DNA of 64,000 nucleotides from a virus. This document shows, piece after piece, positions 3,527 through 41,081 of the stretch. The DNA is taken from the IMG/VR virus record IMGVR_UViG_3300020042_011666, positions 32,001 through 96,000 of that record; one strand, written 5' to 3'. A program made the position numbers and the translations under genes. The notes beneath the pieces are model-generated. The model was not told where the DNA came from and did not search any database. It was given only the letters and a program-made list of their open reading frames with translations. The first letter of the stretch is position 1. The number at the start of each line of letters is the position of its first letter.

Positions 3527-3925
3527 TTATTTAGAGGATAATTCTACTATTAAATTTCGTTTGCAGGTAAGAGCCCATTTATTAGCTTTATCCTCGGCTG
3601 CTCTCTCATATGGATTATCATAATAATGTTTAGAACGAGCAGCATACTTATCATAGTTTTTAGATATGTTTTGAGTATAATGAGTGTATTCGTGGATAAT
3701 AGTTCTAATTAGATCAAGTATGGATTTATGAGGTTGTAAGAAGATGTGTATTTCATTATTATCTTCATCAAAATATCCATACATTTTATTTTCATCTATT
3801 TTTTTATGGCACACCAATTTAGGAAATGTATCGTGAAACTTAGAGACCCCCCATTTATTCTTACACCATTCAAATGCTAGAATAACGGTTTTGCGGTCAA
3901 AGTTTAGTGTGCTCTTTTTTACCAT
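3527..3925 (-). CDS. zincin (SprT-like) metallopeptidase-domain protein
   Basis: IIHEYTH (HExxH) and downstream NPYERAA Glu. Confidence 0.6.
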   Translation of the reverse strand: MVKKSTLNFDRKTVILAFEWCKNKWGVSKFHDTFPKLVCHKKIDENKMYGYFDEDNNEIHIFLQPHKSILDLIRTIIHEYTHYTQNISKNYDKYAARSKHYYDNPYERAAEDKANKWALTCKRNLIVELSSK

Positions 3926-3932
3926 TTTTATC

Positions 3933-4079
3933 TTAAAATGCTTTATATACAGATTGTTCTTCGTTTCTTGTTACTTTACAAATTAGTCTCCACCCAGCAT
4001 TATTTGATAATGACAATGGGATAATGGATGAGCCGAATTTCTTCTTTTTAGCGTTTTTTCGTTGACGAGGAATTTTCAT
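3933..4079 (-). CDS. small basic hypothetical protein (not in ORF track)
   Basis: 48-aa ORF MKIPRQRKNAKKKK... filling the gap. Confidence 0.35.
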   Translation of the reverse strand: MKIPRQRKNAKKKKFGSSIIPLSLSNNAGWRLICKVTRNEEQSVYKAF

Positions 4080-4773
4080 ATGTTTTTAATTTTAATTTGT
4101 CTATAATACATAGTGCCATTTTTTTATGGCCTGATGATGTCATGTGGCATAAAAAATCACCGCAATCCGTTCTTGATATACAGTGTGTTTGAACAACAGT
4201 AGCCCCATGAATAGAGTCAACTAATAGTTGTTGAAATTTAGTATAGCGTTGTGGATAACCTTGATATGCTTGTCGTGTACCAATATTAATACAAGTTACA
4301 GGATCAAATCCAGTAATTATAATAGGTGTAACAGCAAATTTATGGCATATATTCACAATTGCCTGGATGTTTTTAACTGACTTTATTGGTGGGCGATTAC
4401 TAGCCATATCATTTGCCCCACCATATATAAAGCAATAGTCGAAATATTCATTTATTTTCAATTTAGCCTCTTGTAACATCCATGCTGTTTGTTTACCACC
4501 AACAGCCGTATTTAAATAAGTCATTTTGGTTTTTTTACATAATTGGTGTTGCCATCCATAATCGGCGGCTGTGTGTGAATCACCAATAAACAATACTTTT
4601 TTGCCTTTAACATCATTAATTACCGGTTGAGGTATAATAGTATCTGTTTTGGCAGGAGTAAAATGAGAATGTTTTACCGGTGAGGCTTGAACGCTCATCA
4701 CATAAACAGATAAAATACCAAAAATAATACATATTATCAATAAGATAATTACATCAGTGTGTTTAGTTTTCAT
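4048..4773 (-). CDS. membrane-anchored SGNH/GDSL hydrolase
   Basis: FIGDSHT, GGAND and DFLCH (DxxH) blocks; N-terminal TM; start moved to 4773 because the longer ORF overlaps the tRNA. Confidence 0.8.
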   Translation of the reverse strand: MKTKHTDVIILLIICIIFGILSVYVMSVQASPVKHSHFTPAKTDTIIPQPVINDVKGKKVLFIGDSHTAADYGWQHQLCKKTKMTYLNTAVGGKQTAWMLQEAKLKINEYFDYCFIYGGANDMASNRPPIKSVKNIQAIVNICHKFAVTPIIITGFDPVTCINIGTRQAYQGYPQRYTKFQQLLVDSIHGATVVQTHCISRTDCGDFLCHMTSSGHKKMALCIIDKLKLKTYENSSSTKKR

Positions 4774-4778
4774 GTTTG

Positions 4779-4864
4779 TACTACTGGCCGGGATCGAACC
4801 GGCACGAGCATTGCTGCCCACAGGATTTTAAGTCCTGCGTGTCTACCTATTCCACCACAGTAGC
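4779..4864 (-). tRNA. tRNA-Leu(TAA)
   Basis: Acceptor GCTACTG/CAGTAGT, anticodon arm CAGGA-CTTAAAA-TCCTG, long variable arm, GTTCGATCC T-loop; CCA not encoded. Confidence 0.93.
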
Positions 4865-5316: not shown

Positions 5317-5339
5317 TTTAAAAAAATAGATAGAATTTG

Positions 5340-5720
5340 TTATCCTATAAAATCATCTAAGTGATCTGGTATTCCGTCTCCGTCTACATCACAAATTTCG
5401 ATGTATCCAAATGCTTTCATAAAATTAGCAACTCGGTCTTTCAAGTCATTATCTGTATCTTCAAACCAATCTTCTTTTAAGCGGTCATGTTCTAAAACAC
5501 TAGTTAATGCCTCGTACATTTTATCAACATTTTCAACTAAGTAAATGTCTGATGCTGCAAAATCTAGACTGAAAGCATGATCATCGATTTGGGGGATAGA
5601 TAAGATTAAATCGGTTTTACCAATTTTCTTTTCTTTTAGAGTCATTTCTTTTCCAAACTTGTGGAAATATTCACCTACATAAATGTAACCTGAACCCTCG
5701 GGTAGTGTAAATTCGCTCAT
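5340..5720 (-). CDS. hypothetical protein, weak GIY-YIG/T5orf172-like, with C-terminal Ca-binding motif
   Basis: GYIYV...KIGKT N-terminus; DVDGDGIPDHLDD C-terminus. Confidence 0.45.
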   Translation of the reverse strand: MSEFTLPEGSGYIYVGEYFHKFGKEMTLKEKKIGKTDLILSIPQIDDHAFSLDFAASDIYLVENVDKMYEALTSVLEHDRLKEDWFEDTDNDLKDRVANFMKAFGYIEICDVDGDGIPDHLDDFIG

Positions 5721-5721
5721 A

Positions 5722-6549
5722 TTATTTTAATAAGTTATAGTATTCTTTAAAATGTTTAATTCTATCTGCTAGTCCAATTGTACCACCATTAACACGTTTA
5801 GTTACAGCAGTAACAGTTGCATCATCGGCACCACGATCACAAATACCCCAAAGTTTATTTGTATCAAAAAACCAAGCAGCCGAGGCTAATGGGTATTTAG
5901 TTGCCACTAGGTCTGGGTTGTTAGTTGTGTCTTCAGGTACGAATTTATCAAATGCCATGTAATTTGCTTTACCCGTTAATTGGATATAACCACGTCCTCT
6001 ATATTTAAATCCCTCACCTGTTGCCTCAGCACCATTACCCATTCTACCTCCATAGACGCGAGCTGCGATTTTTTCTGGTTTACGAGCATATTGTTCAGCT
6101 AATGCTAATGTTGGGAAATATTTTCCAAATATACCCTGTAATCCTTTTGAAGAGTAGTTTAAATTCTCTTGAACGGCTTTAAATCCACCTGATTCATGTC
6201 CGCACTGGGCTAAGAAATGAGCCAAACGTAATGGATTTGTAATGTTAAATTTAGCAGCCGTGTCGGGGATTTGAGCAATAACTGAGTCAGGAATATGTCC
6301 TTTTAGTTTATCTAATTTAAATGAGCTAGGAGCAACAGTAACTGGAGCAGCAACTGGTGCGGCTGTGGGTGGGAATAATTTATTCCATGTACCATCACCT
6401 ACGAGTCCATCAGCGACCAAACCATTAGCGGCTTGATATTTTTTAACTGCCTCTTCGGTTTTAGGTCCAAATGTACCTACTGCCTCTACGCCTAACCTGA
6501 CTTGTAATTGTTTTACAAAGTCATTATTATCACCTTTTTTTAATAACAT
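5722..6549 (-). CDS. endolysin: peptidoglycan-binding domain plus GH19 domain
   Basis: VKQLQ...FGPKTEEAVKKYQ...DGLVG PG-binding motif; HFLAQCGHESGG, YRGRGYIQLTG, VNGG GH19 motifs. Confidence 0.9.
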   Translation of the reverse strand: MLLKKGDNNDFVKQLQVRLGVEAVGTFGPKTEEAVKKYQAANGLVADGLVGDGTWNKLFPPTAAPVAAPVTVAPSSFKLDKLKGHIPDSVIAQIPDTAAKFNITNPLRLAHFLAQCGHESGGFKAVQENLNYSSKGLQGIFGKYFPTLALAEQYARKPEKIAARVYGGRMGNGAEATGEGFKYRGRGYIQLTGKANYMAFDKFVPEDTTNNPDLVATKYPLASAAWFFDTNKLWGICDRGADDATVTAVTKRVNGGTIGLADRIKHFKEYYNLLK

Positions 6550-6551
6550 AA

Positions 6552-6788
6552 TTAACCTTCGTTGTTGTCTTTTTTTCCCTTGTTTCCCCAAATTTTATCT
6601 ACTGAAGATAAACCTAAGCATCCAAATGCCAATAACGCTACGCTATCAACTAATACGGGTGCAGGGGCAATATGGGCTTCTGAAAATGAGTTGTGGTACA
6701 TTGTAGCACATAAAGCTACAGTACATAATAATCCGCAAAGTCTCTTCATAGAGATTTTACCTGTTTCGTCAAAAAATAGTTGTTTCAT
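6552..6788 (-). CDS. putative holin
   Basis: Two TM segments, SMKRL motif, charged C-tail, directly upstream of endolysin. Confidence 0.6.
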   Translation of the reverse strand: MKQLFFDETGKISMKRLCGLLCTVALCATMYHNSFSEAHIAPAPVLVDSVALLAFGCLGLSSVDKIWGNKGKKDNNEG

Positions 6789-6789
6789 A

Positions 6790-7236
6790 TTATAGTTGTT
6801 TAGTTGTTTCTTTTAGTGATGACTGTAACGCTTTTGAAAATGCTTTCCGGTTAAGTGGAATCTCATTTCCTTCAACTTCTAAAAACATAGCAAAAATGAA
6901 AGTACGTCTTTCACCTCTACCTTTGAAACAACCTGAACCAATACAAGTACTGGTTTCAACAATATAATCTTTTCTCAACCATTTCATCCCCATAATGTTA
7001 AGAATTTGTTGTGGCGAGTAAATACTATCAATAGTTACTTGAACAGGAAAACCCAATGAATCATTTGGTGTATATCCTTTTTCAATTAATAATTCCTCAA
7101 CTGTTTCTTTAACACCAAAAGTAACATCTCTACCTCCAATTGTTTGAATGCGTTGAACGTTATTTACATGTACGTTCACTTTAGTAGTGTCTATTGGAGA
7201 TAAAAATAACAATATTGGGGTAATAAAATTTATCAT
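6790..7236 (-). CDS. exported protein, possibly a minimal CsgG-like fold
   Basis: Hydrophobic N-terminus; GVKETVEELL helix and C-terminal FSKALQSSLKET resemble the CsgG-like ORF at 9787. Confidence 0.4.
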   Translation of the reverse strand: MINFITPILLFLSPIDTTKVNVHVNNVQRIQTIGGRDVTFGVKETVEELLIEKGYTPNDSLGFPVQVTIDSIYSPQQILNIMGMKWLRKDYIVETSTCIGSGCFKGRGERRTFIFAMFLEVEGNEIPLNRKAFSKALQSSLKETTKQL

Positions 7237-7248
7237 CTATTATAAATA

Positions 7249-8451
7249 TTAGTAAGTTACTGCTCCTGAATAACCAGGTGCAATGATATAAAGATTTAGT
7301 GTTCCACCTGATGTTAAAGTGGAGGTAGTATGGTTAGTTACTCCCGGGTAAGTTGCTCTTAGGTTAGTTGTACCAGCAACAATAGAATTATACTGGGTAG
7401 TAGTAAAAATTCTTACATCAGGAGCTATTCTCCATTTAGAAAACCTACCTGCTTTCCTTGCAGCAACGTAATATTTGTCTGCAACAGAAATTATCCCATC
7501 ATCATTTACATCAAACATATGAAATGAAAGACCTGTTTTTGCTGTCTTACCTAGTATAATATTGGAAACAGCTTGAATATCTGTTGTAGTATAAGCTTGT
7601 ATTCTAGTTGGGGCATCTACTTGAATTGTAAATTGATCTCCTGTTACCACAGTTCTTGAAAAAGAATAGTATCCTGATGAGTTTGTATTTAAGGTAGCAT
7701 CTAATGTAGTAGAAGATGTTGTAGTACTTGAGGATGTATTTATTTCCCAACTAGTACCCGAAAAAGAACCTGATGTAACTAGTGTACTTGCTAACCAAGC
7801 ACTACCTGTTGATATACCCATCACCTCTTGGTTAGAACCGTCTGCTGTAAATGTTCTCCAAACTACTATCTGCTTTGAAGCTTGGTTTTTAATAAAGTAT
7901 AAATCCCAGGTGTAGTTTACTCCTGTCTGATTGTATTTGCAGTTACCTTCGTATCTTACTCTAAACACGTCTCCGTAAGTTGCATCAGTGTAACTTTCAG
8001 TTGAAACATAAGAAACGTTGTTGTCTGAAGAACTATTATCTACAGAACCTATATGAATGGTTGGTTGATTAGGATTTGTAGCGTTTCCATTATATCCTGA
8101 ACTTGAGCTTGTTCCAAAAGTAAACCATGAGTTAGCATTTACGTGACCTGATGAATAGGTAGTACCTGCATATGAAGGACTAAACCCGGAAGGAAATGTA
8201 ACAGCAACAGAAGTTTCATCTGTATTAGTAGTAGAAAAAAGTACTGAAGTTCCTCTCCCCCTGTCAGAAGGAATACCTGATGTTATTTTAGCAAAAGTAC
8301 CTGATTTAGTAGTAGCACCGGCTGTGCTTTTGTAAATTTTTACCGGAACATTGCTCGCTCCCGATCCGTTTGCATTATAAAGATAACCTGAGTAGGTAAA
8401 TTGACCTAATATGGTATTAGTAATAAAAAATAGAACAATAATCCATCTCAT
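7249..8451 (-). CDS. secreted dockerin-like protein with inserted beta domain
   Basis: Signal peptide ending G|Q; split SGYLYNANG...TNSSGYYSF Ig-like domain; FDVNDDGIISVAD EF-hand/dockerin motif. Confidence 0.65.
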   Translation of the reverse strand: MRWIIVLFFITNTILGQFTYSGYLYNANGSGASNVPVKIYKSTAGATTKSGTFAKITSGIPSDRGRGTSVLFSTTNTDETSVAVTFPSGFSPSYAGTTYSSGHVNANSWFTFGTSSSSGYNGNATNPNQPTIHIGSVDNSSSDNNVSYVSTESYTDATYGDVFRVRYEGNCKYNQTGVNYTWDLYFIKNQASKQIVVWRTFTADGSNQEVMGISTGSAWLASTLVTSGSFSGTSWEINTSSSTTTSSTTLDATLNTNSSGYYSFSRTVVTGDQFTIQVDAPTRIQAYTTTDIQAVSNIILGKTAKTGLSFHMFDVNDDGIISVADKYYVAARKAGRFSKWRIAPDVRIFTTTQYNSIVAGTTNLRATYPGVTNHTTSTLTSGGTLNLYIIAPGYSGAVTY

Positions 8452-9803
8452 AATAATAATTTACCTCCCATCAATATTTGATAATTTAATATATTTTGTC
8501 CTGCAACATACGTTCCTCCTCCTGTAAGTCCAATGCCAAATGTTTTAGTTAGTTTATAAGTTAAATTTATAAATGGGATTACAATTGGTCTTGATTTAAA
8601 TAAGGATTCGGTATAATACTTTGAGTATGGTGAGTATACACATGCGGCTATTATAGTTGCATTTATAGCCTTAGTTAAATTACCTTTATACATAAAACCA
8701 CCTATAGCCAGTGTTGATATCATTTCCTCGCCATACATGTTTCCATATGTGCCCGCACCACCATATAATGCTGTAAAATTCTTAACTGAATTTACTCTAA
8801 CAAACAATGCTGTATTAGACCATGATTTAGGTAAAAAACTAAATCCATCTGATACAACGTTAATGTGTTTATTGCCTTTTGAATTAGTACCCATCCAAGA
8901 CCGCATTACAGTCATATTACCAATTTTAGCATTAACCATATAATCAGCCGAAAAGCCTAATGATGCTGTTCCATCTCCTTTTACTTTAGTAAATGACATT
9001 GTACCACGAGCATCTCTAGAACCATCATCGGCTTTTTGTACACCAACAATGTCACCTGTAACTAAGATCGCAGGTTTAGCAACTTCGGCTTTAGCTTTAT
9101 TAGCTGCTTTGGCTGTACCTGAGGATTGTGATTTTTGTGTTTCGGTTTTGGTTTCTTCTACTTTTTCGTTAGAAGGTGTTTCGGTTTTTGGTTCTTCGGT
9201 TTTACCTTGCCCCTCTCCCGATCCTGACCCGGACCCGCTGCCATTGCCACTGCCACTACCAGAGGACCCACTGCCACTGCCAGAACTGCTACCACTTGAA
9301 TTATTATTTCCATTATCAGGGGGTGGTGGGTTGTTATCTTGGGTTTGACTTGAATTGTTGTCCTCACTTGATTTATTTTCGTTTCCACCACCAACCCCTG
9401 ATGTACCTGATGAGGCACTTCCACCAACATTAACCCCTACTGATCCGATAGATCCCACATTAGCAATTGAATTTAAATTCATAACGCTGTTAACAACGTT
9501 TGATGCTAAATTCGTACTAGTTGTGGTGGTAGTAGTGGTTACTGCCCCCTGGCAAGGTGATGTTGTTTTGTATTTATTATACGTATCACTCATCCACAGA
9601 TCAAACGTACCGTTTTGCAATTCAGCGTAGCTGAATGTTTTTACTTGCCCGTAGTAGGTAACTACAATAGGACTATTCATATCTGTGGTGATGAATTTAG
9701 TCTCCTTAGTACACGGGTCAATATATGAATACATAAAGGACTGCCCTTTTAGGGACAGTCCTATCATAAATAGAAAAAATAATATTTTAGTTTTTAAAGA
9801 CAC
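8448..9803 (-). CDS. secreted protein with S/G/N linker and probable C-terminal OM beta-barrel
   Basis: Signal peptide G|Q; low-complexity linker; alternating amphipathic strands to the C-terminus. Confidence 0.55.
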   Translation of the reverse strand: MSLKTKILFFLFMIGLSLKGQSFMYSYIDPCTKETKFITTDMNSPIVVTYYGQVKTFSYAELQNGTFDLWMSDTYNKYKTTSPCQGAVTTTTTTTSTNLASNVVNSVMNLNSIANVGSIGSVGVNVGGSASSGTSGVGGGNENKSSEDNNSSQTQDNNPPPPDNGNNNSSGSSSGSGSGSSGSGSGNGSGSGSGSGEGQGKTEEPKTETPSNEKVEETKTETQKSQSSGTAKAANKAKAEVAKPAILVTGDIVGVQKADDGSRDARGTMSFTKVKGDGTASLGFSADYMVNAKIGNMTVMRSWMGTNSKGNKHINVVSDGFSFLPKSWSNTALFVRVNSVKNFTALYGGAGTYGNMYGEEMISTLAIGGFMYKGNLTKAINATIIAACVYSPYSKYYTESLFKSRPIVIPFINLTYKLTKTFGIGLTGGGTYVAGQNILNYQILMGGKLLL

Positions 9804-10473
9804 CAGCTTTGATTAAGTTTTCGATTACTTTAGTAGTAGCAGTCTCTAAAGACTTTCTAGTGGCTTTACCTACAGTACTTTGTGAAAACTTCATATCAAG
9901 ACTTTTTAGAAATGATTCTCCTACTTTTGTCGATTCACCTTCTCCTGATCCAATATGGATCTGTCCCGTTGTAGCATCAACGAACCTAACTTGGAGACGT
10001 ATGAAAGTAGTAACAACAACTTTGCTTTTACCCTTTTCAACGGTCTCATCTTCATCAACAGCAAAATCGGCCACAGTAACATAAACAAAGTAACGAGCAG
10101 CTTTAATCTTACCCTTCCCATCAATGGGCTCTTCGAAGACTCCTTTCTTAGAGGCTTTGAATTGGGTAACCATTCTTTCCTTGATTTCTGATTTTTCTTC
10201 TGTAAATATAAATCTTCCTGTTTCATCTAAATAATCTAGTACTGATTCGGCAAATCCTAATCCAACATTCTTTTCTTGAAGGTCTGGGTATAGAGCTAAA
10301 ACTTTAGTCATGTCAACGTTGATTACCTGGACAGCATATTTCAAGCTATCTGTGTAATTTGATACTGAAGAAATATCTTTAGTTTCAATAACGTCTTGTT
10401 CGGTTGTAGTTTTCATTGAACCACATCCAATCATAATAACTAGTAAAAAAGCAATAAGGATATTTTTTACCAT
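9787..10473 (-). CDS. CsgG/HfaB-family lipoprotein
   Basis: Lipobox MIG-C; GRFIFTE, GKIKAARYFV, LQVRFVDATTGQI motifs. Confidence 0.75.
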   Translation of the reverse strand: MVKNILIAFLLVIMIGCGSMKTTTEQDVIETKDISSVSNYTDSLKYAVQVINVDMTKVLALYPDLQEKNVGLGFAESVLDYLDETGRFIFTEEKSEIKERMVTQFKASKKGVFEEPIDGKGKIKAARYFVYVTVADFAVDEDETVEKGKSKVVVTTFIRLQVRFVDATTGQIHIGSGEGESTKVGESFLKSLDMKFSQSTVGKATRKSLETATTKVIENLIKAGVFKN

Positions 10474-10790
10474 GGATCTTCTTCTTTAGGTTCCGGTTTA
10501 GTAGCAGGAGCAGCAGTGGCCGCAGGTTTTTCAACTACACGCTCTTTAATAATTGTGTTTGTTCCTCCACCGGATTGCTGTTTTTGCTGGTTAGTGTTGT
10601 TGTTCTGTAAGTTGATCACAACAGGGGCAGCAGCTGCACCTTGTTCTGTTTTAGCTTCATCTTTAGGCTCTTCGCCACCGCCTAAGTGGGTTGCAAACCA
10701 GGCACCGCCGGCTGTAACTGCTGTAGTGATAGCACCAATAATTGCTTTTTTGGTAGCTGACATTACGCCTTCTTCTTTTTCTTCTGACAT
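10467..10790 (-). CDS. single-TM protein with N/Q-rich segment
   Basis: AIIGAITTAVTAGGAWF; VVINLQNNNTNQQKQQ. Confidence 0.6.
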   Translation of the reverse strand: MSEEKEEGVMSATKKAIIGAITTAVTAGGAWFATHLGGGEEPKDEAKTEQGAAAAPVVINLQNNNTNQQKQQSGGGTNTIIKERVVEKPAATAAPATKPEPKEEDPW

Positions 10791-10791
10791 T

Positions 10792-11076
10792 TTATTTGTT
10801 TTTTAATTCGTTTAATGCTTCTTCGACATATTTGTCTCTTTGTTCTTGTAAATATTCTATTCGCTCTAGCAGGATTTGTTTATCATCCTTAGCAGTTTGT
10901 GTTATATAAGCTTCTTTTTCTTCGTATAATTTCTGCCAATAAGCTACTCGTTCTTCCATCATCTTGCCCTGGTACCAAATTATACCTACCATAATGATGA
11001 TAGTAAAAGATTGCTCTTTTAATTTTGATAAAAAAGTATCAGCAAATCCAGAAAGCGGAGTAGATTTTTCAGACAT
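10792..11076 (-). CDS. single-TM coiled-coil protein
   Basis: TM FTIIIMVGIIWY then a helical charged region. Confidence 0.6.
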   Translation of the reverse strand: MSEKSTPLSGFADTFLSKLKEQSFTIIIMVGIIWYQGKMMEERVAYWQKLYEEKEAYITQTAKDDKQILLERIEYLQEQRDKYVEEALNELKNK

Positions 11077-11082
11077 AGTTGA

Positions 11083-12246
11083 TTACCAGAATTTAAGTTT
11101 CTTAAATACGTTGCTTGTCTCTCTAGCAGCTCTATCAGCAGCTTCCTGAGTTTCACGAGCGATTCTTTCAGTTTCTCTCCTAGTGGCTTCAGCAGCTTCG
11201 TTAGCAAGTCTTTCTGTTTCTCTCTTAGCAGCTTTGGCAGCTTCTGCTGCTTCTCTTGCAAGTCTTTCTGTTTCTCTTTGAGCGGCAGCAGCTTGTTCTG
11301 CTAATACTCTTTCAGCTTCTTCGGCTTGACGTTTTGTTTCGGCTGCGATTCTTTCTGTTTCTTTCTGTGCTGCTTCGGCGGCTTGCCTAGCTTTTTCTTC
11401 TGCTTCTCCGTTTGCGATTGCTTCACTTAAATCGATAACTGGGTTTAAATTTATATCAACATTAACATCTGCTTCAACTCCAAGTAGTAGAGCTACATCA
11501 CCTGATATTCCAACGCTAGCAACTCCATCGTTAAGTGTTGCGTGACCTTCGCCTTCAACACCTACTTGAACACCAACACTTGCTCCAACACCACCGCCAA
11601 CTGAATTTCCGTTTACACCTACTGATCCTTCGGCTTCAACTCCAGCACCAGCACCTGCCATAGCACCACCACCAACTTCAGCTCCATGTTCACCTACTGA
11701 GGCATGACCATCAACTCCGGCATGAGCTTCTGCGTATGCACCCGCTGATCCTTCAGCTTTAGCTTCAATAACCACTTCACCTAATGGTGTATCAAGTCCT
11801 GCTTTACCAGTTGCTTCAGCACTTACTTCAACTTCTACTCTAGCACTAATTTCAGCTCCAGCTTCAACTTTAGCATCTGAGCCGTCCCATCCTGCTTCAG
11901 CATGAGCTTCAGCACTTGCCTCGGCACTAGCATGAGCTTCGGCGTGAGCATTTGCTTCTACTCCAACGCTTACGCCACCGCCTAGTTCTTGACTAGCATG
12001 GGCTTCAGCATTTGCTTCTGCATTTACTTCAGCGTGCACATTAGCTTCTACAGAGGCGGAAGCCATTGTTCCATCAATTCCTGCTTCAGCATGAGCACTT
12101 GCTTCTGCTTTTGCATCATAGGAAGCATCAACGCTTGCACCTACTTGTTCGTTTCCTGTTTGTGTAGCTACTTTATCTTTAGTTTCTACTGATTTTTTAG
12201 CCCCTGTGCTAATTTTTTTAGTTGGGGTTTGTTTTTTCTTTGCCAT
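11083..12246 (-). CDS. A/G/V/E-rich repetitive protein with C-terminal coiled coil
   Basis: Alternating xAxAxG pattern; repeated (R/K)ETER(L/I)A units. Confidence 0.7.
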   Translation of the reverse strand: MAKKKQTPTKKISTGAKKSVETKDKVATQTGNEQVGASVDASYDAKAEASAHAEAGIDGTMASASVEANVHAEVNAEANAEAHASQELGGGVSVGVEANAHAEAHASAEASAEAHAEAGWDGSDAKVEAGAEISARVEVEVSAEATGKAGLDTPLGEVVIEAKAEGSAGAYAEAHAGVDGHASVGEHGAEVGGGAMAGAGAGVEAEGSVGVNGNSVGGGVGASVGVQVGVEGEGHATLNDGVASVGISGDVALLLGVEADVNVDINLNPVIDLSEAIANGEAEEKARQAAEAAQKETERIAAETKRQAEEAERVLAEQAAAAQRETERLAREAAEAAKAAKRETERLANEAAEATRRETERIARETQEAADRAARETSNVFKKLKFW

Positions 12247-12250
12247 ATTT

Positions 12251-12610
12251 TTATCCTTCTAGTGTGCTTGATAATGTTTGACCATCTTCTTCGTCTACTT
12301 TCTGAATTAGCATTTTATCTCTATCTTCAGAATTAAACCAATAGTCAATAACTTTGTTTAAGTTACCAACAAAAGCACCTAATAAAATTAGTAACATTTC
12401 TTTCCAATCTTCTCCGATTGATGCCCCTAAAAATACAGCTGCGTTGATACCAACGATGATTAATGTAAACAATCCTAATACGATAGCGGTAATTTTCCAG
12501 CGATTAGATTGCATTTGTTGTAACATAAAGTAAAAACGATTCTTATCGTCTACTGAAACGAACTCAGATTTTGGGCTGAGTACATCCTTAATTGTGTCTT
12601 TAATTCCCAT
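12251..12610 (-). CDS. two-TM membrane protein (holin-like)
   Basis: Two hydrophobic helices, LLGAFVGNLNKVIDYWF. Confidence 0.55.
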   Translation of the reverse strand: MGIKDTIKDVLSPKSEFVSVDDKNRFYFMLQQMQSNRWKITAIVLGLFTLIIVGINAAVFLGASIGEDWKEMLLILLGAFVGNLNKVIDYWFNSEDRDKMLIQKVDEEDGQTLSSTLEG

Positions 12611-12613
12611 ATT

Positions 12614-14506
12614 TTATTTGTTTATAATTATTTTTGAAGTTGAAATTTTAGTATCTGTTTTAACTGATAGAAGGTAGAAACCGTTATCTAGCTTAGTTAA
12701 GTTAACAACGTATTTGTAATCTCCTGCAGGCATTTTAGTGTTTAGTACCTCCAGTACCTTTCTTCCAATTAGATCACTAACCATTACTTCGGTTTGTGAT
12801 TCTTGTTCTACTTTAAATTGAACATTGATTATTCCATCGTTTGGATTTGGAAACACTAATAAGTCTTTAAGTTCGGCGAGCTTGATTGTTTTTTTAACTC
12901 TCCTCACTTCTACTACTCCCATGGCCGGTGTAATATTCATATCCCTTGCATCATTACCTCCAACGTATTTAGGCCCAGTCCAGATAGCGGCTGTTGCCCA
13001 ACTGTCTTGAGGTTTTTTAGCAATGAATTGAAGGCTAAATACATTCTCACCGTCATTCACTAATTGATTTCCTTTTAAGTCAGCAGCACCAAATGCAACT
13101 ACTCCGTTAGATGGGTTAGTGTATGAAGTCCAGTTCATCATCTTTTCAGTCAAGTCGATTTTCTTAAACTCTAATAATGCTGTATCATACTTTAATTCTA
13201 ATTGAATTGCTCCTAATTGTTTTCCGTCAGTAAGCATTCTTACAGGAACGTTAACTAAGTTACCTTCATCAACTTTAATTTTAGGCATATTAACTTCAAT
13301 AGTCTCAGTTACATCGTCGTACTGAACTGTGTTATCGATAATATAGCTTTTAGCATTAGCGTAGTTGGTGATTTTAATAGGGGTCAAACGAGCCATTTTA
13401 AAGCCTGTTGCATTAGCATCTCCTTTAACAGCTACATAATAAGTGATAGAATCTCTTCCATCTACTGAGTATGTGAAGTTATTAACTGTTGAGTAAGTAG
13501 AAGTCAAGTTAGAGCTTGCTCCGTTGATTGCATTGTATTCGGCAACTGTAAAGAACATTACATCCTTTTTAGAGTTAGGCCAAGCAGAGAATCTACCTGC
13601 TAATCTTCCATATACTGAATAAACGTCTGCAATGCTAATTAAACCATCAGTTCCGTTAACGTCCATTGTGTAGTAATCAAATCCTGCAGGAGTGTATTGA
13701 CCTAAGATAGATTGATTGATCTTCTGTGCATCTGCAGTAGAGAATACGTTACCAGGAGTCATTGTATCTCCTTTAACTACTATTCTAACATCCCAGTAAG
13801 TAGTATCTAAGAATTTTCTAAATACTGTAACTCCGTTAGAGTTAGTTTTTTGTGCTGCAATTTGAGTCCAGGTAGAAGAACCTTTAGCTCTTTTTTCTAA
13901 ACTAACTGTTAAGTTCTTAGCATCTGAACCTGTAACGTTCTTGAACTTAGTAGCAAATCTTAACACCTTCTGATTGAAGCGACCACCATAAGAGTAAACT
14001 ACCAAAGTAGTATCATTACCCCAGTTCGTAGCAGCTCTGTTAGAGAATGATTTAACACCTGCAACTTTTAAAGTCTTAATAGAATCTAAACTGTTCCAAG
14101 TAGACTCACCAGCATGGGTGAAAGTTAAATCAAAGGTTGCTCCATTAGAGTAGTTAAAGGTTGAGTTAGTACCTGTGTAAGCTAAAGTAACTGTTAAGAA
14201 TCCTTGTGTGTTACTATCTACATACTGAAGGTATTGGTCAGTAGTAGAGATTTTTAAGGTAGGTACAACAGCAGTAAATGCAGTGTTATCGTAGAATACA
14301 CGAAACTGCACACCTGTAATTTTCTCAGAAGTAGAAGTGTTGTAGAAATGTAAAGGGGCAACAGTCTGTCCGACAGTAGTGGTTGCTACTTGATAACCAG
14401 AATCAATTACCACCCAGTGCCCTGTTCCAGGTGATGTTGAAGATGATTGTGCCGATACTCCGAAAACGGCAACAGCCGTCAGAAGGAATGAGATGAGTTT
14501 TTTCAT
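12614..14506 (-). CDS. T9SS type-A CTD protein with cohesin-like and dockerin-like domains
   Basis: Signal A|Q; ITGVQFRVFYD and VNVPV...LGAIQLELKYD cohesin-like motifs; MDVNGTDGLISIAD dockerin-like motif; VFPNP...GFYLL...KIIINK CTD. Confidence 0.85.
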   Translation of the reverse strand: MKKLISFLLTAVAVFGVSAQSSSTSPGTGHWVVIDSGYQVATTTVGQTVAPLHFYNTSTSEKITGVQFRVFYDNTAFTAVVPTLKISTTDQYLQYVDSNTQGFLTVTLAYTGTNSTFNYSNGATFDLTFTHAGESTWNSLDSIKTLKVAGVKSFSNRAATNWGNDTTLVVYSYGGRFNQKVLRFATKFKNVTGSDAKNLTVSLEKRAKGSSTWTQIAAQKTNSNGVTVFRKFLDTTYWDVRIVVKGDTMTPGNVFSTADAQKINQSILGQYTPAGFDYYTMDVNGTDGLISIADVYSVYGRLAGRFSAWPNSKKDVMFFTVAEYNAINGASSNLTSTYSTVNNFTYSVDGRDSITYYVAVKGDANATGFKMARLTPIKITNYANAKSYIIDNTVQYDDVTETIEVNMPKIKVDEGNLVNVPVRMLTDGKQLGAIQLELKYDTALLEFKKIDLTEKMMNWTSYTNPSNGVVAFGAADLKGNQLVNDGENVFSLQFIAKKPQDSWATAAIWTGPKYVGGNDARDMNITPAMGVVEVRRVKKTIKLAELKDLLVFPNPNDGIINVQFKVEQESQTEVMVSDLIGRKVLEVLNTKMPAGDYKYVVNLTKLDNGFYLLSVKTDTKISTSKIIINK

Positions 14507-14964
14507 TTTTGTATATTAGTTAGTTGTCTTATTGCATGTTGTTTTAACCAAGGTTCAGGATTATTAAGCTTATCAATGAAGGTAAGCTCATACCTGTAAC
14601 ACCACGCTTCCTCTTGTTCAGGAGCAATGATGTATCCTTTTTGTAAAACATGCAAATGTAAACTCTCATGAACTAACACTACAGCGAGGTTGTTAATTGA
14701 ATTTAATTTTACATCTTTAACAGCAACTAATATAGTTCCTTTATTTCCATAACTTCCATCATTAGATGAGAACCCTGAAGACCAAAACTCTACTTTATTG
14801 CAAACACTGTCAATCAACTGATATTTTTCAATATCGGTTTTTTGAATTAAGGCTAATGCTGAGTCTATTTTTTGGTCCCATCCGTCACCTGCTTTGTCCA
14901 CTTTAATTTGGGAAAACGATATTGAGGGAAACAAGAATAATATAATAGACAACAGTAACTGCAT
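14503..14964 (-). CDS. secreted zincin metallopeptidase-like protein
   Basis: Signal S|Q; LVHESLH and EEAWCY motifs. Confidence 0.6.
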   Translation of the reverse strand: MQLLLSIILFLFPSISFSQIKVDKAGDGWDQKIDSALALIQKTDIEKYQLIDSVCNKVEFWSSGFSSNDGSYGNKGTILVAVKDVKLNSINNLAVVLVHESLHLHVLQKGYIIAPEQEEAWCYRYELTFIDKLNNPEPWLKQHAIRQLTNIQK

Positions 14965-14990
14965 CTATCATACATATTGAAAATTATTTG

Positions 14991-15062
14991 TACTCGGTAG
15001 GGGAGTCGAACCCCTCTTACCAGGATGAAAACCTGGTGTCCTAACCGATAGACGAACCGAGC
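14991..15062 (-). tRNA. tRNA-Glu(TTC)
   Basis: Acceptor GCTCGGT/ACCGAGT; anticodon arm CCAGG-TTTTCAT-CCTGG; GGTTCGACTCC. Confidence 0.93.
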
Positions 15063-15283: not shown

Positions 15284-15284
15284 G

Positions 15285-15355
15285 TTGCGGACGACAGACT
15301 CGAACTATCAACTTTGGGTTATGAGCCCAATGTGTTACCATTACACCAACCCGCC
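15285..15355 (-). tRNA. tRNA-Met(CAT), probably initiator
   Basis: TTGGG-CTCATAA-CCCAA with three G-C pairs next to the loop; 1:72 mismatch. Confidence 0.85.
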
Positions 15356-16914: not shown

Positions 16915-17020
16915 ATGCTATTCTTGACTTTTTGTTTTTTCCTCTTCTAATTTGAAGTTCTTTTTCAGCTAGCCAAATTTTTAGTGTACTTAATTTTTGT
17001 AGGTTTGATGTTTTGCTCAT
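16901..17020 (-). CDS. small hypothetical protein (not in ORF track)
   Basis: 39 aa MSKTSNLQKLSTLKIWL..., ATGA overlap with upstream stop. Confidence 0.4.
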   Translation of the reverse strand: MSKTSNLQKLSTLKIWLAEKELQIRRGKNKKSRIAYEEE

Positions 17021-17559
17021 AATTTATTCCATTTATTTTTATAGTTTATGTTTGATGCAGCGTATTGAGCATATTCGTTTCGTACAGGTTGTCCTGTATT
17101 ATATGCCCCACACGCTAGGGTCCAATCTTTGTATATGCTATGCCATGTACGTAGCATTTTCATAGATACCATAACATTTAAGTCAATATTATGTTTTAGT
17201 TCATTAATAGATACTTTTCTCCCTGCAAACTTGTGAGCATATCTAGGAATAATTTGCATCGGCCCAACAGCTCCTGAAGATGATGTTAGAGATGGGTTAT
17301 AATTCCAATGTAATGGTCCTTTATATCTACTTTCTAAATATGCCACATTATAGGCAATATGTTTAGGTATATTAAATGAGTCTGAGTATTTCTCTAAAGC
17401 ATCATGCATTTGGACAGGGATAACGCTTAATTTATCGTTTAACTCGTCAGATTCGCGCTGTAATTTAATTACCTTGTATTCTAACCGGATATATAGCAAA
17501 GCTAAGAGGACGATTAAAATAATGACATACCATCGCTTTACCTGTTTAAAAATATCCAT
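17017..17559 (-). CDS. membrane-anchored lytic transglycosylase (SLT)
   Basis: AYLES, GAVGPMQI and AYNTG SLT motifs; N-terminal TM. Confidence 0.85.
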   Translation of the reverse strand: MDIFKQVKRWYVIILIVLLALLYIRLEYKVIKLQRESDELNDKLSVIPVQMHDALEKYSDSFNIPKHIAYNVAYLESRYKGPLHWNYNPSLTSSSGAVGPMQIIPRYAHKFAGRKVSINELKHNIDLNVMVSMKMLRTWHSIYKDWTLACGAYNTGQPVRNEYAQYAASNINYKNKWNKL

Positions 17560-31951: not shown

Positions 31952-32180
31952 CTTCCCCGTAAATGTTATATGTTTTAGGTTTTACCTCAGAATTTTCTTC
32001 TATAATAACATACAATTTTCCTTTTAAAGGTTCAAGTCTAAAGGCTTGAGGTTTTGTAACACATGAAACGTAATAAGCGTTTAATGCTTCAGTTAATGAG
32101 TTATAAATTATACCATTTACATCCCACCTGTCTCCAGGGGCAACACGATTAGCGAGTTCAATATTTTTTTCTTGTTTCAT
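31944..32180 (-). CDS. hypothetical protein
   Basis: 78 aa, RVAPGDRW. Confidence 0.6.
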
Positions 32181-40508: not shown

Positions 40509-41081
40509 TTATTTAATTAAATATTTTGTATAATCGCTTTGTGTAGGTACAATATTAGGGAAATAATATACTTCTTTTTTAGCACCAATCCAAATAGTTT
40601 TATAAAAACCATCTGGTATAGTTGCACCTGTAGGTAGTTTTTGTGAACGAGGAGAATAAACCATCCTAATTTCAACTTTAACGGTTGCTGTTTTAGCTAA
40701 ATCTCGCTCGTGTATTTCTAGTATTCTCCAAACACCTCTATTTAATTTTTCGTGTTGCAAAACACAATTTACATAAGAGAATGTTTTATATAACATTTCC
40801 TTAGTACAATTAAAATCAGCAGCAGGGGCACAATGTCCTTTATCCCAAACATTAGCAACATAATCGTTAGCATCAGATGTAATAACACCAGGGAAAGAAT
40901 AAAAATCCATTCCTGTACGAGGAGCAGTACCTGTAGGACACAAAACAGTATACCATACTCGTTTAGGTTGTTGTAAGATTTCTGAGTAGACTGCTTCGTA
41001 AATGTCTGTTTTAACATAAACTGAATCGCGTTGAGCGAATAGAGATAATGGGAGTAAAAATAGTAATAATATAGAACGCAT
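40509..41081 (-). CDS. secreted DNA/RNA non-specific endonuclease
   Basis: Signal A|Q; DKGHCAPAAD, LNRGVW and IPDGFYK motifs. Confidence 0.85.
   Translation of the reverse strand: MRSILLLFLLPLSLFAQRDSVYVKTDIYEAVYSEILQQPKRVWYTVLCPTGTAPRTGMDFYSFPGVITSDANDYVANVWDKGHCAPAADFNCTKEMLYKTFSYVNCVLQHEKLNRGVWRILEIHERDLAKTATVKVEIRMVYSPRSQKLPTGATIPDGFYKTIWIGAKKEVYYFPNIVPTQSDYTKYLIK

Follow-up and report, generated by a model that had tools for sequence, protein, structure and literature searches.

What a virus would gain from a run of genes whose products nearly all carry export or membrane signals is the question raised by positions 6790 to 14964 of the 64,000-nucleotide stretch analyzed here (the window), which covers positions 32,001 to 96,000 of the IMG/VR virus record IMGVR_UViG_3300020042_011666 (111,940 bases, estimated to be 67% complete). 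Ten open reading frames (ORFs) fill this interval on the minus strand, which holds almost all ORFs of the window, with gaps of 0 to 13 nt or short overlaps between neighbors. ORF, tRNA, and Pfam calls agree with the original prediction that these genes form a contiguous, co-oriented set placed between tRNA genes and a holin and endolysin (Table 1), and eight of them recur in related phages as a cassette. This cassette includes a cohesin-bearing scaffold that ends in a type IX secretion system (T9SS) sorting domain, a secreted cargo protein that has no such domain, and a lipoprotein with a predicted CsgG fold. The main new result is that the cargo gene is a hot spot of domain swapping.

Among the cultured phages of the phage collection, relatives were limited to Flavobacterium myophages, vB_FspM_immuto (160 kb, Baltic Sea; NC_055915; hereafter immuto), with Flavobacterium sp. 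LMO8 as host and a match to the 630-aa scaffold of approximately 30% identity across 96% of its length. Judged from its relatives, the host of the record is most likely a member of the Bacteroidota of the Flavobacterium type. Eighty IMG/VR loci were retrieved by means of the 228-aa lipoprotein, whose relatives in public data number 747 at 90% clustering, many of them from metagenome assemblies, and all genes were compared by tblastn. Together with immuto and the window's own record, these make up the 82 loci to which the counts below refer, and some of the gene absences among them are due to contig ends that cut genes off. All 82 loci contain homologues of the 107-, 228-, 451-, and 400-aa genes, whereas those of the 630-, 148-, 119-, and 153-aa genes are present in 81, 75, 61, and 54, respectively. 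The order is fixed as 153, 630, 119, 107, 228, 451, 400, and 148. The 80 IMG/VR loci and immuto thereby answer the concern, raised with the original prediction, that the genes might not co-occur in related phages.

Immuto keeps the order of the cassette at 27 to 42% identity over the longer alignments. Its gp013 combines a lectin with a dockerin-like tail, gp014 and gp015 represent a split scaffold, gp016 is the stalk, gp017 is the lipoprotein (42% identity), gp018 is the barrel protein, and gp019 corresponds to the 148-aa protein; no match to the 153- and 119-aa genes was found in immuto. The cassette is also borne by contigs of metagenome-assembled genomes (MAGs) labeled Bacteroidetes, Sediminibacterium, and Flavobacterium, with a lipoprotein identity of 44 to 50%. 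Contigs L083 to L086 carry more of it; in three of these four (L083 to L085) the gene order is retained and an endolysin gene adjoins.

The 630-aa scaffold as a whole matches Pfam Cohesin (PF00963) with 50.4 bits (E = 3.5e-13) over two stretches. The C-terminal cohesin alone scores 43.3 bits, above the gathering cut-off of 24.1, whereas the N-terminal one, with 22.2 bits (E = 1e-5), falls just short of it. Residues 551 to 628 of 630 match Por_Secre_tail (PF18962) with 48.8 bits (cut-off, 27; E = 8.5e-13), TIGR04183 is matched with 39.6 bits (cut-off, 23; E = 3.8e-10), and this C-terminal domain (CTD) can be aligned with a solved structure of such a domain, chain 8glk_D. The N terminus presents a signal-like segment. 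The middle module, at residues ~180 to 385, is a transthyretin-like sandwich with a dockerin-like insert, and the 400-aa cargo has a paralog of it in its C-terminal half. Of the architecture originally proposed for this protein (cohesin, dockerin, cohesin, and T9SS type A CTD), one clear cohesin and the CTD hold, while the second cohesin lies just under its cut-off and the dockerin under that of its family. No other protein with a CTD or a cohesin was found in the 112-kb record. The four MAGs that hold the related contigs L083, L084, L085, and L088 encode 13 to 116 CTD proteins each.

The cargo was modeled with AlphaFold2 on an alignment of 47 copies. From residue 245 on, the predicted local distance difference test (pLDDT) is 84 to 95, with helices at residues 289 to 299, 307 to 313, and 323 to 333; the variable insert is poorly modeled (pLDDT below 50 across much of residues 45 to 245), and weak propeller and lectin matches in that region were not used. 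Foldseek returned no global match for the whole model. Locally, the helical module superposes on the dockerins 4fl4_G (root mean square deviation [RMSD] of 1.6 over 54 columns; template modeling score by target, 0.68) and 4uyp_B (RMSD of 2.4 over 55). These dockerin matches have probabilities of 0.93 to 0.95 and stand among the few high-probability local ones, although their E values are about 1, the module being short. Structural alignment with VIA-align assigns the N-terminal, post-insert, and C-terminal strands to one transthyretin/CnaB-type sandwich (Z of ~7). The cargo is thus modeled as a single sandwich with two inserts, the variable domain and the dockerin-like helical Ca module, in which Ca positions 1, 3, and 12 (D314, N316, and D325) do not vary among the 47 aligned copies from cargo and scaffold. 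The module is classified, from its modeled shape, as a three-helix dockerin-like fold and not as a member of Dockerin_1. What had been described as a second secreted dockerin-like protein without a CTD is indeed predicted to be secreted, has no CTD, and shows the three-helix fold in the model, but it reaches neither the Dockerin_1 cut-off nor the duplicated Ca loop of that family.

On the same frame, the variable slot of the sister phages holds Lectin_C (E = 1e-17), GEVED (E = 2e-14), PA14 (E = 7e-8), or an unassigned insert, the last being the state found in the window. Lectin_C, GEVED, and PA14 are ligand- or sugar-binding modules of secreted proteins. The lectin variants contain several cysteines and show the EPN and WND motifs in the alignment. 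Cargo proteins share 32 to 94% identity across loci in which the lipoproteins, the products of the most conserved gene of the cassette, are 81 to 97% identical. Because domains are swapped at this slot, the cargo may be the specificity element for variable surface glycans.

Correlations between distance matrices over 49 loci, which are exploratory and ignore phylogeny, place the C-terminal half of the cargo closest to the N-terminal part of the scaffold (r = 0.38), followed by the barrel and stalk proteins (0.28 to 0.30) and the second cohesin (0.17); against the adjacent 148-aa gene the value is 0.01. The scaffold itself is a recombination mosaic, in which the first cohesin co-evolves with the middle module and the second cohesin with the CTD (r of ~0.5 between the two parts), and the boundary coincides with the split of the scaffold gene into two ORFs in immuto. 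This mosaic was seen with positions 11598 to 13422 of locus L001 alongside 12614 to 14506 (minus strand) of the window.

A Pfam scan of the 228-aa lipoprotein itself gave no match. Its family is more informative: 161 relatives were found among 1.84 billion representatives, and of 45 aligned relatives, 21 match CsgG (PF03783; best E value, 3.7e-23) and 8 match LpoB. In fused relatives, the CsgG domain lies exactly at the stretch that aligns with the query. The family profile matches E. coli CsgG (3x2r) from the lipobox to residue 190 with an E value of 5.9e-5. In agreement with this, CsgG structures are the top Foldseek matches (E = 1e-6) of the AlphaFold2 model (pLDDT of 83), and VIA-align superposes the model on 6l7a with a Z of 12.6 (RMSD of 3.3 over 168 residues), compared with 10.5 for Cj1090c and 8 to 9 for LptE and PelC. 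As a prediction of fold, the assignment to CsgG is sound.

Bacterial relatives of the lipoprotein also occur in the MAG contigs L087 to L090, where the other cassette genes are missing. In the vicinity of the homologue in L087 and L088, from Rhodothermales and Bacteroidota MAGs, there is a gene for a caspase-domain protein (Peptidase_C14) or for a Ser/Thr kinase with PEGA domains, and L088 has two tandem lipoprotein copies. Fused CsgG-caspase and kinase-CsgG proteins also exist (P0162 and P0237).

The remaining core members are smaller or less readily classified. In the 107-aa stalk, the transmembrane (TM) segment, an APAPV-IN motif, and the C-terminal Trp are invariant in 22 sequences, including immuto gp016. 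The 451-aa protein has no Pfam match and no match among PDB sequences. Its C-terminal domain (residues 240 to 451) is strongly conserved in the alignment, and the ESM Atlas model of this part matches 12-strand KdgM-type porins (template modeling scores of 0.78 and 0.75) and other small barrels, at a whole-protein pLDDT of 0.46. That one model is a lead in favor of the β-barrel proposed from the sequence, as a putative 12-strand outer membrane barrel. A weak hairpin inside the block, at 9762 to 9737, sits right past the end of the lipoprotein gene in the signal-peptide codons of the 451-aa gene and has a perfect 10-bp stem with 6 GC pairs followed by a T-rich stretch; it may be an attenuator or a translational control site. 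The ESM Atlas copy of the 451-aa protein begins at Met24, downstream of this hairpin, a start that would drop the signal peptide.

For the 148-aa protein, whose relatives have canonical signal peptides, the searches gave no family or fold match; the ESM Atlas contains no model of it, and the nearest named clusters there score below 0.9. The suggestion that it might be a second CsgG-like protein found no statistical support: in single-sequence and profile comparisons by hhalign, two short stretches aligned collinearly with the lipoprotein family, at probabilities of 0.7% (E = 0.087) and 8.7% (E = 0.0038), Pfam results for individual members were inconsistent, and the candidate was rejected as unsupported, not as disproved. 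Searches of PDB sequences by phmmer and hmmsearch with the 400-, 451-, and 148-aa proteins and their profiles gave only low-complexity or chance matches. In the 153-aa protein, H99, E100, H103, and E126 are invariant in a 19-sequence alignment, so that the HExxH motif of the secreted peptidase originally proposed is borne out, and a downstream Glu is conserved as well; peptidase activity is predicted from these residues, and no Pfam, PHROG, or NCBIfam family was matched. Homologues of the 119-aa protein, an accessory member, include those in L083 and L085. A second small HExxH protein, of 132 aa, is encoded at 3527 to 3925 (minus strand); it matches DUF6782 weakly, has no signal peptide, and aligns poorly with the secreted 153-aa protein outside the motif.

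Across all ten proteins, Pfam, PHROGs, NCBIfam, and PADLOC gave significant matches only for the cohesin and the CTD, with nothing relevant from PADLOC. The concentration of export signals in the block nevertheless far exceeds chance. Among the 63 window ORFs of at least 100 aa, 7 of the 10 most hydrophobic N termini fall in these 8 kb, with values of 1.9 to 3.65 against a median of 0.7. Export or membrane signals, expected for nearly all of the genes, are present in nine of ten, the exception being the 387-aa ORF; the 119- and 94-aa ORFs have internal TM segments.

Table 1. Features of the block and its flanks, in order of position in the window
Feature	Coordinates	Strand	Description
126-aa acidic protein	5340-5720	-	Ca-loop-like motif DVDGDGIPD; located after the endolysin gene in 37 loci
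Endolysin	5722..6591	-	PG_binding_1 and GH19 (Pfam E 8.8e-11 and 7.7e-8); downstream flank
78-aa holin-like ORF	6552..6788	-	Two hydrophobic helices (two TM), charged C terminus; no Pfam match; downstream flank
148-aa small exported protein	6790..7236	-	Core member
400-aa secreted cargo	7249..8451	-	Transthyretin-like sandwich; variable insert of ~200 aa at ~45-245; Ca module 289-333; no CTD
451-aa protein	8448..9803	-	Signal peptide if GTG start; two-Cys N-terminal domain; low-complexity linker of ~150 aa; C-terminal domain 240-451, probable barrel
228-aa lipoprotein	9787..10473	-	Lipobox MIGC; CsgG fold predicted from family profile and AlphaFold2
107-aa inner-membrane stalk	10467..10790	-	N-terminal TM; Pro/Ala/Glu/Lys-rich tail; C-terminal Trp
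94-aa protein	10792..11076	-	N-terminal TM and coiled coil; weak match to PHROG holin phrog_9316 (E 0.0034)
387-aa protein	11083..12246	-	Ala/Glu/His/Gly-rich; AHAEA-type repeats; basic N terminus; RETER-type coiled-coil tail ending FW
119-aa membrane protein	12251..12610	-	Hydrophobic segment of ~30 residues at 37-67; accessory
630-aa scaffold	12614..14506	-	Signal peptide; cohesin-like 1 at ~42-154; sandwich ~180-385; cohesin 2 at 404-521; CTD 551-629
153-aa secreted HExxH protein	14503..14964	-	Signal-like segment ending FSQ; minimal zincin-like candidate
tRNA-Glu	14990-15062		Upstream of block
tRNA-Met	15284-15355		Upstream of block

Two of the ten genes do not belong to the conserved core, so that the proposal of a single ten-gene module holds for the other eight. 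Among the 82 loci, the window's own record alone has the 387-aa gene, for which no phage homologue was found and whose region has a guanine-plus-cytosine content of 0.42 to 0.47, against 0.33 to 0.38 nearby; it appears to have been inserted into the cassette recently. The 94-aa gene is a rare insert, shared by the window's record with L073 and L074 only. Its product, encoded beside the stalk gene, may act as an accessory in lysis or be a spanin-like or holin-like protein.

The cassette occupies at least two genomic neighborhoods. In addition to the arrangement seen in the window, approximately 20 IMG/VR loci form a clade (that of L049) in which it is followed by small ORFs, a 670-aa gene, and another gene that weakly matches a P22-like portal (E = 1.5e-4, under the Pfam cut-off), in the place of holin and endolysin genes. 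In L049 (13018 to 19900) and approximately 19 sister loci, the lipoprotein is still 84 to 88% identical to that of the window, and the portal-like gene has no match within this 67%-complete record. The cassette may thus move between phage backbones. When 101 Flavobacteriaceae genomes were searched, matches at an E value of 1e-8 or better came from nothing but the scaffold's CTD. Because of this result, and because the lipoprotein relatives in L087 to L090 stand without the other genes, the cassette is not an obvious recent acquisition from a host.

The reading favored here, tentatively and as something short of probable, is that the cassette is a phage module that re-equips the envelope of the infected Bacteroidota cell, with a display half and a trans-envelope half. 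It builds on the observed domain identities, export signals, synteny, and domain swapping, and draws in particular on the docking module shared by scaffold and cargo, the single CTD protein of the record, the exported character of the set, and the coherence of the module. Further reasons are that the closest cultured relative infects Flavobacterium and that the MAGs with related contigs encode CTD proteins. From these we infer cohesin-dockerin binding, use of the T9SS, surface location, timing, and payoff, in the following steps. Expression would probably be late, because the block is transcribed in line with the holin and endolysin genes. The scaffold would be exported by Sec and fold in the periplasm, where its type A CTD would hand it to the host T9SS, which would place it on or outside the outer membrane. 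The cargo would dock on a scaffold cohesin through its Ca module, most simply in the periplasm, and reach the surface as a passenger. Both the infected cell and the debris left after lysis would then be coated with a glycan-binding protein chosen by the phage. The likeliest payoff would be that surface glycans are occupied or masked, so that rival phages are blocked and progeny are kept off debris; adhesion of the cell to particles or neighboring cells is an alternative. The position near the lysis genes suggests receptor masking on cells and debris, or adhesion, rather than early exclusion. Assembly at the cell surface by way of the host T9SS, as originally proposed, is plausible. The trans-envelope half, composed of the stalk, the CsgG-fold lipoprotein, the barrel protein with its tethered N-terminal domain, and the 148-aa protein, may form an outer membrane-associated complex linked to the inner membrane that aids display or readies the outer membrane for release.

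Several observations weigh against this reading. Dockerin_1 (PF00404) scores are 14.6 to 17.7 bits against a cut-off of 22.9, with 17.1 for the best sister variant, and 8 of 14 control genomes likewise yield weak Dockerin_1 matches. Of the duplicated Ca loops of dockerins, a single canonical one, DVNDDGIISVAD, is present, and the first repeat retains only the helix. Non-cellulosomal cohesin and dockerin-like modules need not pair, and the covariation between cargo and scaffold (0.38, compared with 0.28 to 0.30 for other genes) is weak and takes no account of phylogeny. To our knowledge, passenger export by a T9SS has been demonstrated for no system. Late expression, which is deduced from gene order only, fits superinfection exclusion poorly, and approximately 20 of the 82 loci have no adjoining endolysin. 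Finally, the display model leaves the role of the trans-envelope half unexplained.

A stronger form of the same idea, which must be considered unlikely, is a self-assembling surface coat. Scaffolds, each with two cohesins and one dockerin-like module, would interlink, capture CTD-less lectin, PA14, or GEVED subunits in the periplasm, and take them through the host T9SS as passengers to the surface, where the coat could be retargeted to different glycans by the swap of a single domain; stalk, lipoprotein, and barrel would be a new device for anchoring or release at the outer membrane.

Proximity to the lysis genes raises the alternative that stalk, lipoprotein, and barrel substitute for spanins, bridging the periplasm and breaching the outer membrane after holin and endolysin have acted, with scaffold and lectin as accessories. 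Downstream of the block, a single strong terminator-like hairpin was found (13-bp stem, at 5319 to 5290); it lies past the holin and endolysin genes, directly after the 126-aa gene, and is probably the end of the transcription unit. The endolysin gene follows the cassette in 48 loci, and adjoins it also in the divergent L083 to L085. Like two-component spanins (Rz/Rz1), in which an inner-membrane periplasmic protein and an outer membrane lipoprotein are encoded beside holin and endolysin by genes that often overlap, the cassette has a stalk gene that overlaps the start of the lipoprotein gene, and the stalk combines a TM segment with an extended tail and an invariant C-terminal Trp. The scan of cassette proteins against PHROGs gave no match to a spanin family. 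However, the tail is rich in Pro and Ala and is not a coiled coil, a folded CsgG-type domain of 228 aa is unlike the short outer membrane spanins, and the unit stands within a larger T9SS/lectin block, so that the T9SS-tagged cohesin scaffold and the swappable lectin are left unexplained. In the clade of L049, moreover, the block lies beside a portal-like gene, and in immuto it is approximately 6 kb from the endolysin. On balance, a spanin substitute is an unlikely account of the block.

Of similar, low likelihood is that two unrelated functions travel together, namely, a T9SS cargo and lectin set and a separate CsgG-type outer membrane unit for solute leak or uptake or for the timing of lysis, with no joint complex. 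Each half has its own precedent in phages (PMC7468147; PMC7029224, PMC9004378), the scaffold is a recombination mosaic, the cargo recombines independently of its neighbors, and the bacterial lipoprotein relatives occur next to caspase-domain and kinase genes without the rest of the cassette. Against this, the two halves are found together in every locus retrieved with the lipoprotein, including immuto, other Bacteroidota MAGs, and the second neighborhood. Because the cargo gene recombines so freely, this cohesion exceeds what linkage alone would give.

A route in line with the original prediction has the lipoprotein as a curli-type outer membrane pore, through which the CTD-less cargo or some other substrate would pass before docking on the scaffold displayed by the T9SS. 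CsgG is the best structural and profile match, a cargo without a CTD needs some outward route, and one long hairpin (residues 128 to 166) protrudes at the place of the first membrane hairpin of CsgG. Yet this hairpin is 6 residues shorter than that of E. coli CsgG, contains 9 charged residues in 23 with no charge-free face, and is polar across the whole family, while the second membrane hairpin is absent from the monomer model. None of the ten cassette proteins matched the CsgE, CsgF, CsgA, or CsgB families in Pfam or NCBIfam. CsgG passes unfolded chains, whereas the cargo is a multidomain protein with several cysteines in its lectin variants. The fold and the lipidation signal of the CsgG proposal stand, but the outer membrane secretion pore does not follow from them; that the modeled lipoprotein forms a pore is doubtful, and export of the cargo by this route is improbable. 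Most improbable of all is a virion accessory, in which lectin modules folded in the periplasm would join released virions through cohesin-dockerin contacts and extend the binding of hosts or particles: the presence of C-type lectin and PA14 domains is in keeping with receptor binding, and their swapping resembles that of receptor-binding proteins, but no other cohesin or dockerin-like sequence was found elsewhere in the 67%-complete record, and the T9SS tag would take the scaffold away from the site of virion assembly.

Returning to a module that re-equips the host envelope, its parts can be compared with systems already described. The 'Cryophage' of Bellas et al. (2020; PMC7468147) encodes T9SS cargo with type A sorting domains in a Bacteroidota host, includes a PA14-domain protein among it, and has genes that are highly variable between phage variants. 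Its endoglucanase, GH39, and PA14 proteins each have their own CTD, whereas in the window a CTD is found on one protein, the cohesin scaffold, and is missing from the variable lectin/PA14/GEVED protein, which shares its dockerin-like module with the scaffold. A CsgG-fold lipoprotein, a stalk, or a barrel is not reported in the passages of that source covered here. Pelagimyophages and the Methylophilales phage Melnitz carry CsgG/CsgF clusters, with aggregation ("sibling capture") or the timing of lysis as the proposed role (PMC7029224, PMC9004378). Like the present case, they are large marine phages in which a CsgG-family lipoprotein is encoded in a small operon together with hypothetical envelope proteins. 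They differ in a recognizable CsgF, in a CsgG described as a barrel-forming pore, and in hosts that lack a T9SS; in the window, the searches revealed no CsgF, a short, charged hairpin takes the place of the first membrane hairpin of CsgG, and the lipoprotein is accompanied by a Pro/Ala stalk, a probable 12-strand barrel, and the T9SS cohesin/lectin pair.

The likeness to cellulosomes lies in a cohesin above the Pfam cut-off, a Ca module that superposes on type I dockerins, and the logic of a scaffold with interchangeable subunits. In contrast to cellulosomes, the module has one Ca loop instead of a duplicated pair, lies inside a transthyretin-like sandwich, and is under the Dockerin_1 threshold; no enzymes are attached, the anchor is a T9SS CTD and not a sortase signal or S-layer homology domain, and the pairing is putative. 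Genes gp013 to gp019 of immuto are the same cassette, differing in the split scaffold and the distant endolysin; the only annotations in that record are of proteins with a "cohesin domain" and a "lectin C-type domain" (gp013). Papers that cite immuto deal with DNA modification and polymerases, and no description of the cassette was found in the literature on cohesin, dockerin, and T9SS or on lectins of Flavobacterium phages. The claim that nothing of the kind is described in a phage therefore holds for the combination but not for its parts, which are published (PMC7029224 and PMC9004378 for CsgG/CsgF, PMC7468147 for T9SS cargo) or annotated in the immuto record.

Elsewhere in the window, three further proteins appear to be directed to the envelope. 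These are a membrane-anchored GDSL lipase/acylhydrolase (4048 to 4821, minus strand), a TM-anchored SLT lytic transglycosylase (17017 to 17559, minus strand), and a 190-aa protein (40509 to 41081, minus strand) with a canonical signal peptide (…LFAQ).

Marine and freshwater phages of Bacteroidota are abundant, and the biology of their lysis and of their manipulation of the host surface is largely unknown. If the favored reading is true, the host T9SS would be used for a modular scaffold with an interchangeable sugar-binding head, which would be a second recognition system besides the tail fibers. It would also give a new context to phage-borne CsgG-fold proteins, which have been puzzling since 2020, and might reveal how these phages deal with the outer membrane of Bacteroidota. 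With immuto on Flavobacterium sp. LMO8, a cultured system exists in which direct testing is possible.

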